48,939 bases of DNA from a virus, in IMG/VR virus record IMGVR_UViG_3300028886_000137, positions 1 through 48,939 of that record; one strand, written 5' to 3'. Of this stretch, positions 44,543 to 44,628 are shown one piece after another; position 1 is the first letter of the stretch; every line of letters starts with the position of its first letter. Below the pieces are notes generated by a model, which was not told the DNA's origin, searched no databases, and worked only from the letters and a program-made list of their open reading frames with translations. The translations under genes were made by a program, and so were the position numbers.

Positions 44543-44628
44543 TGCGCGTGGCGGGATTCGAACCCGCGATAAGCTAATTTGCTTGACGGATTAAAAGTCC
44601 GTTGCCCTAGCCTCTAGGCGACACGCGC
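44543..44628 (-). tRNA. atypical long-variable-arm tRNA with anticodon UUU (A73)
   Basis: GCGCGTG-TC-GCCT-AGAGGCTA-GGGC-A-ACGGA-CTTTTAA-TCCGT-CAAGCAAATTAGCTTATC-GCGGG-TTCGAAT-CCCGC-CACGCGC-A. 18-nt variable hairpin. Confidence 0.55.

Follow-up and report, generated by a model that had tools for sequence, protein, structure and literature searches.

Can a transfer RNA (tRNA) with a long variable arm serve as a lysine tRNA? To our knowledge, bacterial long variable arms are confined to the tRNAs for leucine, serine, tyrosine and selenocysteine. The question is raised by a gene at 44543..44628 on the minus strand of a 48,939-nucleotide (nt) stretch of viral DNA (positions 1 to 48,939 of IMG/VR record IMGVR_UViG_3300028886_000137; hereafter the window, meaning the whole stretch analysed), which encodes a long-armed tRNA with the lysine anticodon UUU. 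An earlier sequence-only reading of the window took it for a Leu-bodied tRNA, perhaps a recent anticodon-switched paralogue or a deliberately ambiguous decoder, that would mistranslate lysine codons unless it were charged by lysyl-tRNA synthetase (LysRS). We found that the gene is one of a large family of long-arm lysine tRNAs carried mainly by phages, that the body of the molecule, judged by its sequence, is closest to that of tRNA-Tyr, and that its product is most likely a working tRNA-Lys.

Results

Structure of the long-armed tRNA gene

Read along the minus strand from 44628 to 44543, the gene gives an 86-nt tRNA up to the discriminator base, folded as a 7/5 cloverleaf; the acceptor/T branch of 7 and 5 base pairs (bp) was obtained alike from Rfam, from the predicted fold and from the covariation alignment described below. 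ARAGORN assigned a tRNA-Lys(ttt) at 44542-44628, and the Rfam family RF00005 matched 44543-44628 with 63.0 bits (E 2.5e-12), passing its gathering threshold of 29 bits. The unconstrained minimum-energy fold of the 86-nt RNA was the cloverleaf with the variable hairpin (−35.6 kcal/mol; z = −3.6, with none of 200 shuffles equally stable). ARAGORN, Rfam and the fold therefore agree on a type-II tRNA with the anticodon UUU, as the sequence-only reading had stated.

The acceptor 5′ strand GCGCGUG (44622..44628, minus strand, as for all parts of the gene) pairs with CACGCGC at 44544-44550, giving the pairs G1-C72 and C2-G71. The D arm GCCUAGAGGCUAGGGC (44604..44619), which divides as GCCU-AGAGGCUA-GGGC, is of the class-II (Ser/Tyr) type and leaves G15 free for a Levitt pair with C48; positions 8, 9 and 26 are U8, C9 and A26. 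The anticodon arm ACGGA-CUUUUAA-UCCGU occupies 44586..44602, with the anticodon UUU at 44593-44595, and is followed by the 18-nt variable region CAAGCAAAUUAGCUUAUC (44568..44585), made up of C, the stem strand AAGC, the loop AAAUUA, the stem strand GCUU and AUC, the last base of which is C48. The T arm GCGGG-UUCGAAU-CCCGC (44551..44567), evident from the sequence and from Rfam, has 98.9% of its cells paired in the homologue alignment. The discriminator, at 44543, is A73, and no CCA is encoded. The anticodon stem ACGGA/TCCGT, the loop CTTTTAA, the 18-nt variable hairpin and A73 had all been read correctly from the sequence, and the canonical tRNA-Lys(CUU) reported as a neighbour is indeed present: it lies directly downstream at 44467..44538 on the same strand, is 72 nt long and short-armed, has the D arm AGCUCAGCGGCAGAGC and was recognized by ARAGORN and by Rfam (66.8 bits).

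Other ways of folding the transcript were considered. No Leu or Ser anticodon could be placed in the loop, the minimum-energy fold, Rfam and ARAGORN alike putting UUU in the 7-nt loop. The variable hairpin was ruled out as an anticodon arm, having a 4-bp stem and a 6-nt loop. It was also ruled out as an intron or a recent insertion by its presence, with compensatory changes, in 91 distinct homologues; we know of no bacterial splicing mechanism for a 14-nt hairpin at the variable site.

A phage-borne family of long-arm lysine tRNAs

We searched for the exact anticodon arm, scanned IMG/VR, metagenomes and species-representative genomes with sequence patterns, and ran BLAST with 14 representatives. 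The 22-mer of the window anticodon arm also occurs in two IMG/VR contigs (L001 and L002), whose tRNAs differ from that of the window in the variable stem by compensatory changes. A metagenome scan with a pattern made up of the D-arm motif, the loop CTTTTAA and a T loop of standard form returned 35 loci, 26 with a long variable region and 9 of class I, and all 35 lay inside phage-type tRNA arrays. Among 185,579 species-representative genomes the D-arm-specific pattern gave four matches, all of them on contigs of metagenome-assembled genomes (MAGs) with phage-like arrays. A scan of IMG/VR without the D-arm constraint (CTTTTAA, a gap of 19-30 nt, then GGTTCGAATCC) produced at least 120 matches; of 80 loci among the matches listed, ARAGORN identified 67 as long Lys(UUU) and 6 as long Lys(CUU), and many of these 80 loci are carried by contigs of 100-600 kb. 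The collection amounts to at least 91 different long-arm sequences (anticodon UUU in 84, CUU in 7) from gut, rumen, freshwater, marine and other sources, all situated in phage arrays, plus cultured phages. The family counts (91 sequences, 82 arrays) rest on the matches listed and selected by pattern, and are to be read as such rather than as frequencies among phage tRNA-Lys.

BLAST added members from cultured phages. The Caulobacter phages CcrMagneto, Karma and Ccr5 carry a Lys AAG gene of 87 nt and a Lys AAA gene of 90 nt, CcrBL9, CcrSC and their relatives a Lys CTT gene of 87 nt, and the Rhodobacter phage RcXuper a Lys ttt gene of 88 nt; in GenBank these long-arm genes are labelled simply tRNA-Lys. 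We found no close relative of the window region among GenBank phages, and the window tRNA's own subfamily was found in metagenomes only.

The discriminator is A in 77, U in 13 and G in 1 of the 91 members, and CCA is encoded in L003 and in the cultured-phage members. The cultured alphaproteobacterial members (L164 1501-1587, L165 1501-1588 and L166 1476-1657; CcrBL9, RcXuper, CcrMagneto) combine U73 with an encoded CCA, where most metagenomic members have A73. Their hosts presumably use a class I LysRS. The U73 of these members may be related to that enzyme class, for which base 73 has a marginal role (PMC9976931).

Searching the full-text literature, in which subscription journals are poorly covered, we found no description of long-arm tRNA-Lys in phages, and the family is apparently new to the literature. 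With 91 distinct UUU or CUU homologues across environments and cultured phages, the long-arm lysine tRNAs are a large, mostly phage-borne family of conserved atypical tRNA-Lys, and neither the one-off case nor the recent, isolated anticodon switch that had been suggested for the window gene.

Covariation and a family model

For covariation we aligned 19 diverse long-arm members. Standard pairs filled 95.4% of the cells against 73.4% in shuffles (0 of 500 shuffles reached the observed value), and shifting the 3′ partners by 1-3 columns lowered pairing to 32-48%. Changes on both sides were seen in 19 of the 25 pairs, including all four of the variable helix, and in the acceptor stem all seven pairs were 100% paired, six having changed on both sides. 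The D-stem pair G10-C25 became A10-U25 in L010 and others; L010 is the nearest relative, set apart from the window tRNA by this compensated pair and by an indel of 1 nt in its variable loop. The variable stem itself took the forms AAGC/GCUU, GAUG/CAUC, AAUUC/GAAUU, CAAGU/ACUUG, GAGA/UCUC, GGC/GCC, GCA/UGC and GCGC/GCGC, and GNRA loops closed 37 of 75 variable hairpins. The fold is no chance match, because the homologues carry compensatory changes in every helix, and these changes indicate that the cloverleaf, variable stem included, is under selection. The locus is a genuine phage gene for a lysine-anticodon tRNA on a long-armed body.

We then used a covariance model, R1, built from the 19 members with the window sequence among them. 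The window tRNA scored 98.5 bits against R1, and members outside the training set (L026, L036, L038, L021, L034, L041 and the cultured phages) scored 58-101 bits, with CcrBL9 at 78, CcrMagneto at 74 and 65, and RcXuper at 58 bits. When about 490 array tRNAs from 42 sources were compared with R1, all matches of at least 64 bits had a UUU or CUU anticodon, and phage tRNA-Tyr came next. The R1 scaffold is lysine-specific, carrying UUU and CUU anticodons only.

A scaffold close to tRNA-Tyr

With E. coli tRNA sequences as references for the body, tRNA-Tyr scored 70.0, tRNA-Lys 60.7, tRNA-Ser 46.4 and tRNA-Leu 31 bits against R1; the margin of Tyr over Lys comes partly from the variable-arm positions, whereas its margin over the other class-II tRNAs does not. 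The D arm gave a more mixed picture, its best E. coli match being Ser in 36, Tyr in 34, Lys in 16 and Leu in 5 of the 91 members, and the D arm of the window tRNA having an identity of 0.76 to Ser, 0.62 to Lys, 0.53 to Tyr and 0.47 to Leu. In the variable arm, 61 of the 91 members have 1 nt on the 5′ side and 3-4 nt on the 3′ side of the stem, which in the family is usually of 3-4 bp, with a 3′ linker ending in C48. This linker is 2 nt long in E. coli tRNA-Leu, 1 nt in tRNA-Ser and 3 nt in tRNA-Tyr, and the arm of the window tRNA, C-AAGC-AAAUUA-GCUU-AUC, can be set beside C-GUC-ACA-GAC-UUC of E. coli tyrU.

Taken feature by feature, the window tRNA has the A73, U35 and G1-C72 of tRNA-Tyr together with its variable-arm geometry (1 nt 5′, a short stem, 3 nt 3′), and lacks the GUA anticodon (G34, A36). 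Of the tRNA-Leu features it has A73, without A15-U48 or the Leu-type D loop (G18G19 placement, A20a), and of those of tRNA-Ser (G73, G2-C71, a long variable stem with a 1-nt linker) it has none. The helical long variable region is that of class II, combined with UUU in place of the Leu, Ser, Tyr or Sec anticodon of bacterial class-II tRNAs and without the 4-5 nt class-I variable loop of described cellular tRNA-Lys; the 7/5 branch differs from the 8/4 or 9/3 branch of allo-tRNAs. On these features the body is of class II, closest to tRNA-Tyr in variable-arm geometry and A73, and neither Leu- nor Ser-like. The Leu body proposed earlier does not hold, given 31 bits for E. coli tRNA-Leu against 70 for tRNA-Tyr, G15 with C48, and the 3-nt 3′ linker. 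A reading of the D arm as class-I or Glu-like with an inserted hairpin was also dropped, since the D arm fits Ser/Tyr and the scaffold fits tRNA-Tyr.

Near-Tyr bodies with a new anticodon occur among the members, for example L077, which has U8 U9 and the D arm CCCGAGCGGTCAAAGGG, compared with CCCGAGCGGCCAAAGGG in E. coli tyrU. A tRNA-Tyr gene adjoins the long Lys gene in arrays L022, L030, L032 and L035, and separate tRNA-Tyr(GUA) genes coexist with long Lys genes in arrays. The simplest origin is that the family probably arose from phage tRNA-Tyr by the anticodon changes G34U and A36U, a switch that is possible because tyrosine and lysine tRNAs share A73 and U35. Short-arm phage Lys(UUU) genes with the family D arm exist as well (for example L004 compared with L005, which have identical acceptor stems), and the direction could therefore be either arm gain or arm loss.

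Amino acid identity and codon use

Lysine identity resides in the anticodon triplet and A73, and all three anticodon bases contribute to recognition by LysRS (PMC9976931). The window tRNA has both U34 U35 U36 and A73. Since this set is complete, charging by the host LysRS, which the sequence-only reading had named as the way to avoid mistranslation (through U35 and A73), is the likely outcome. The competing synthetases would be disfavoured, each for its own reason: tyrosyl-tRNA synthetase (TyrRS) because G34 and A36 are missing, leucyl-tRNA synthetase (LeuRS) because G15-C48 stands in place of A15-U48, and seryl-tRNA synthetase (SerRS) because of A73 and C2-G71. In E. coli, leucine identity consists of A73, the A15-U48 pair and D-loop features, serine identity involves the long arm, G73 and G2-C71, and C2-G71 in tRNA-Leu is an antideterminant against SerRS (PMC9976931). 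With LeuRS and SerRS disfavoured by the identity elements, the suspected mistranslation of lysine codons as leucine or serine is unlikely.

The composition of the arrays points in the same direction. In L014 (39 tRNAs) and L036 (27 tRNAs) all 20 amino acids are covered only if the long tRNA counts as Lys, which makes it the sole lysine tRNA in complete 20-amino-acid phage sets. Of the 82 dereplicated arrays, 56 have no second UUU tRNA in the stretch examined, and the other 26 have a short Lys(UUU) in addition. The genome is AAA-rich, as had been remarked, AAA being the commonest codon of the window (762 of 10,453, or 7.3%). At 100 AAA codons of GyrA and GyrB the aligned E. coli residues were K 24, R 21, E 10, V 7, A 6 and Q 6, and L, Y and S were not among these six commonest partners. 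With AAA at 7.3% and at Lys/Arg positions, mistranslation would be costly to every protein. A sole lysine tRNA in complete sets, for the commonest codon, at Lys/Arg positions of gyrase, lends no support to a deliberately ambiguous decoder.

We propose that the gene is transcribed within the minus-strand tRNA array, that the transcript would be processed by host RNase P and 3′ nucleases, and that CCA would be added by the host enzyme, because none is encoded. Charged by the host LysRS, the tRNA would read AAA, and probably AAG by wobble, and so supply the most used codon of an AT-rich phage. Most likely, the window tRNA works as a tRNA-Lys that the host LysRS charges by way of UUU and A73. As an overall explanation, a functional lysine-decoding phage tRNA on a Tyr-like class-II scaffold is one that we hold with good, though not complete, confidence.

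Why a long arm

The scaffold shares only the anticodon loop with host tRNA-Lys, and it might thereby escape defence nucleases that recognize the body of tRNA-Lys(UUU), of which PrrC, RloC, the AriB protein of PARIS and bacterial Schlafens are the candidates; the extra arm would sit beside the 3′ strand of the anticodon stem. PrrC and RloC have both been described as tRNA-Lys anticodon nucleases (PMC2610378; for PrrC also PMC10264068). AriB cuts tRNA-Lys(UUU) at 40|41, and its cleavage was not restored when the E. coli anticodon stem-loop was grafted into the T5 tRNA (PMC12409363); because the transplant failed to do so, AriB must depend on parts of the tRNA beyond the anticodon arm. The Schlafen RorSlfn5 cuts tRNA-Lys(UUU) at 30|31 (PMC13056530). 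Phage copies of tRNA-Lys are known counter-measures to tRNA-Lys nucleases (PMC12409363, PMC10264068). In arrays with a long UUU tRNA, the CUU isoacceptor was short in 36 cases and long in 7.

That the scaffold has been kept for escape from defence nucleases is our leading guess and also the weakest step of our explanation, and we put it forward tentatively, with less than even confidence. The fuller proposal, in which phages rebuilt tRNA-Lys(UUU) on a Tyr-like class-II scaffold that LysRS charges and that PrrC-, RloC-, PARIS- and Schlafen-type enzymes miss, would be workable because tyrosine and lysine tRNAs share A73 and U35; taken as a whole we think it on the unlikely side.

Several points weigh against the lysine reading and its anti-nuclease extension. 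A73, U35, G1-C72 and the long arm form the core tyrosine set, and some charging by TyrRS could occur, because A73 and U35 are critical for tyrosine identity too. Class II LysRS approaches the tRNA from the variable-loop side. Given this approach, the extra arm could hinder charging by LysRS. Our scans demanded CTTTTAA and a canonical T loop, which partly imposes the conservation of both and the UUU:CUU ratio. The anticodon loop CUUUUAA is canonical, and therefore enzymes that read the loop only (largely PrrC) would not be evaded by the arm alone. Finally, 13 of 35 distinct array tRNA-Leu are short-armed, and single array tRNAs for His, Asn, Trp and Ile(UAU) are long-armed, as is the CUA suppressor described below; examples of such class-rule breakers in phage tRNA arrays are L007 2100-2174, L011 1434-1525, L022 2042-2122 and L017 7716-7806. 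Because other array tRNAs break the class rule, the arm may reflect a loose constraint rather than a lysine-specific adaptation.

An explanation that competes only with the anti-nuclease part holds that the long arm is a non-adaptive legacy of a Tyr-derived scaffold, needed for class-II folding, in an otherwise ordinary tRNA-Lys for codon supply. The Tyr-like scaffold and variable-arm geometry, and the long Lys genes found beside tRNA-Tyr in the arrays named above, are what it would lead one to expect; the covariation demands pairing of the variable stem and nothing more, short Leu together with long His, Asn and Trp tRNAs in phage arrays suggest relaxed class rules, and AAA as the top codon of the window fits codon supply. 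It leaves unexplained, however, the frequent replacement of the normal tRNA-Lys in many phage lineages and the far stronger effect on UUU, the isoacceptor known as a nuclease target, than on CUU, which is mostly short in the same arrays. The D-arm-specific scan of cellular genomes, with its four matches in phage-like arrays on MAG contigs, also speaks against it. We regard such a legacy as a serious possibility, one in which we would nevertheless place less than half of our belief.

Other readings of the long-armed tRNA

Charging by both LysRS and TyrRS, with AAA read partly as tyrosine by design or by tolerance, seems improbable to us, although cross-charging by TyrRS is the only serious rival to lysine as the amino acid carried. 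In E. coli the critical tyrosine determinants are A73 and U35, and for bacterial TyrRS G1-C72 and the long arm count as well (PMC9976931); the window tRNA has all four elements, and E. coli tRNA-Tyr was the best scorer on the scaffold model. Yet a full lysine anticodon stands in place of G34 and A36, the anticodons borne by the scaffold are the two lysine ones, UUU and CUU, without exception, complete sets contain no lysine tRNA besides the long one, and tyrosine at AAA would be costly in a genome that uses this codon so heavily at Lys/Arg positions.

Conservation argues against a role outside translation, whether as a decoy or sponge for tRNA-Lys nucleases (by binding or inhibition) or as some other tRNA-like regulator: the acceptor stem, the T arm, G18G19, the anticodon loop and the discriminator show no damage and are as conserved as in tRNAs that decode, most arrays (56 of 82) have no other UUU tRNA, and some members (L003, cultured phages) encode CCA. 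Even with the suggestion that overexpressed viral tRNAs act as AriB inhibitors (PMC12409363), and with a short Lys(UUU) also held by 26 of the arrays, we consider such a role very improbable. That a Leu or Ser body brings the tRNA to LeuRS or SerRS and so puts leucine or serine at lysine codons can practically be dismissed, since, even though both enzymes ignore the anticodon, A73 is the leucine discriminator (PMC9976931) and the D arm is 0.76 identical to that of E. coli Ser, the leucine version meets G15 with C48, a 3-nt instead of a 2-nt 3′ linker and 31 bits for E. coli Leu, and the serine version meets A73 instead of G73, C2-G71, a 4-bp stem with a 3-nt linker against 1 nt in Ser, 46 bits, and tRNA-Ser genes of the same arrays that are long-armed in 32 of 32 distinct cases with G73 in all those listed.

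Genome setting and the tRNA array

The window has about 29% G+C, with most genes on the minus strand, and encodes an NAD-dependent DNA ligase, GyrA, GyrB and a DnaB-like helicase. Reading TAG as sense raised the coverage by open reading frames (ORFs) from 0.77 to 0.93. In two window ORFs, TAG takes the place of the invariant Gln in the GIY-YIG motif YIGQT, and it also falls in the 'GGQG' and 'VQR' columns of homologues; ORFs read through TAG lie at 2146-2823, 9489-10499, 16112-16825 and 20341-22734 on the minus strand and at 36257-37720 on the plus strand. The codon is unevenly used: some ORFs have 5-9 TAGs, and the ligase, GyrA and the body of GyrB have none. Because TAG occupies conserved Gln columns, the element is apparently a large phage that reads TAG as Gln.

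The tRNA array runs from 43465 to the end of the window and contains 11 ARAGORN genes, several of them interrupted or irregular. An amber-suppressor tRNA with the anticodon CUA (47736-47824, minus strand; 'Pyl' for ARAGORN) has a variable region of about 21 nt, U1.U72 and G73, and its variable stem reads ACC/GGU, against GCC/GGC in L037 (4815-4905), a compensatory change. As TAG reads as Gln in the phage, this is probably a long-arm tRNA-Gln(CUA) and a second class-rule breaker in the window array. We saw no convincing class-II tRNA-Tyr in the part of the array that lies within the window.

A tRNA-Leu(UAA)-like gene at 46419-47271 (minus strand) is interrupted after U34: about 780 nt are inserted there, including an HNH endonuclease ORF (46569-47063) with three in-frame TAGs. 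The split site is the classic group I intron position of tRNA-Leu; a search of the insertion for a group I intron gave no Rfam match at E<=1, and the split gene comes out wrongly as Phe when ARAGORN is allowed introns. The acceptor, D and T arms are normal in a tRNA-like gene of 116 nt at 46292-46407 (minus strand; Rfam 36.9 bits), which has about 40 extra nt in the anticodon region, for which ARAGORN guessed a Lys(ttt) with a 34-nt intron. A 92-nt 'tRNA-Leu(taa)' at 44096-44187 (minus strand) has an abnormal anticodon arm, and at about 44290-44384 and 43965-44090 (both minus strand) there are Leu-tRNA-like starts GGCGGAAUAGGUAGACG with inserts of 50-60 nt; the irregular Leu-like stretches of 43965-44384 may be interrupted or decayed tRNA genes. 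Weak AT-rich tRNA-like sequences include a 73-nt short-arm 'tRNA-Tyr(gta)' at 47844-47916 (minus strand, 36 bits) and, at about 47305-47380 (minus strand), a relative of the AT-rich 70-nt 'Lys(ttt)' of L037 (4347-4416) with a different loop.

Separate from the tRNA, and relevant as context, an RNA-repair-like gene set spans 26961..32047 on the minus strand. Pfam places an RNA ligase (PF09414, plus an OB fold; 29927-31165) among three calcineurin-like metallophosphoesterases (26961-27533, 28574-29335 and 31244-32047) and a P-loop kinase of the AAA_33 family (27530-28078). These are the modules of which tRNA repair systems are made. By analogy with T4 Pnkp and Rnl1, we infer that this set may be linked to defence against tRNA nucleases. 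The window also encodes an 806-amino-acid (aa) protein with major-vault-protein shoulder and repeat domains, which is unusual in a phage; beside it is a 511-aa DUF2828/DUF7788 protein and, further along, a Band_7/SPFH protein (the region concerned is 38241-42271 and 25877-26938, both on the minus strand).

Discussion

A single phage isoacceptor breaks the long-arm rule systematically, and yet its genes in GenBank bear the label of an ordinary tRNA-Lys. If LysRS charges these tRNAs, they offer a natural way to test to what extent lysine identity can do without a particular tRNA body, and they would show how tyrosine and lysine identities are kept apart in spite of a common A73, U35 and long arm. 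Should the scaffold give protection from anticodon-arm nucleases, it would represent a new kind of phage counter-defence, and would offer a nuclease-resistant lysine tRNA chassis for engineering. Annotation pipelines that use isotype models may flag or mislabel long-arm lysine tRNA genes. The cultured carriers (phiCbK-like and Bertelyvirus phages of Caulobacter, and the Rhodobacter phage RcXuper) make the family testable.

Among known systems, canonical tRNA-Lys(UUU), as in E. coli lysT and phage T5, shares with the window tRNA the loop CUUUUAA, A73 and the 7/5 cloverleaf, and presumably also the synthetase and the codons. The T5 tRNA-Lys, which rescues infection from PARIS, lies like the window tRNA in a phage array. 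E. coli lysT, however, is a class I tRNA with the 5-nt variable loop UGGUC and the D arm AGCUCAGUUGGUAGAGC, where the window tRNA has an 18-nt hairpin and a Ser/Tyr-type D arm; and the known phage escape tRNA-Lys differ by point changes in the anticodon arm (U39A and A41C in T5), not by a change of structural class. E. coli tRNA-Tyr (tyrU/tyrT) shares A73, U35, G1-C72, the variable-arm layout and the D-arm type with the window tRNA, and differs in its GUA anticodon, whereas the window family has UUU or CUU and fills the lysine slot.

Long arms joined to unexpected anticodons have precedents. The nev-tRNAs of nematodes are reportedly charged with leucine, that is, misacylated (Hamashima et al. 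2016). Together with other eukaryotic V-arm tRNAs, which combine a long arm with class-I anticodons, they are the closest conceptual precedent (cited in PMC5389517); nev-tRNAs, though, are eukaryotic and have Gly or Ile anticodons, whereas the window family is found in phages and its features point to cognate lysine use. The allo-tRNAs and the (8/4) tRNA-Ser and tRNA-His of bacteria and phages (Mukai et al. 2017, PMC5389517) resemble the window family in being irregular long-arm tRNAs with non-Ser/Leu/Tyr anticodons from metagenomes and phage tRNA clusters. In allo-tRNAs, however, the branch is 8/4 or 9/3, base 73 is G or U, the D arm is Sec-like and the anticodons are many, with Lys recorded only once, whereas the window family has a 7/5 branch, mostly A73, and lysine anticodons only.

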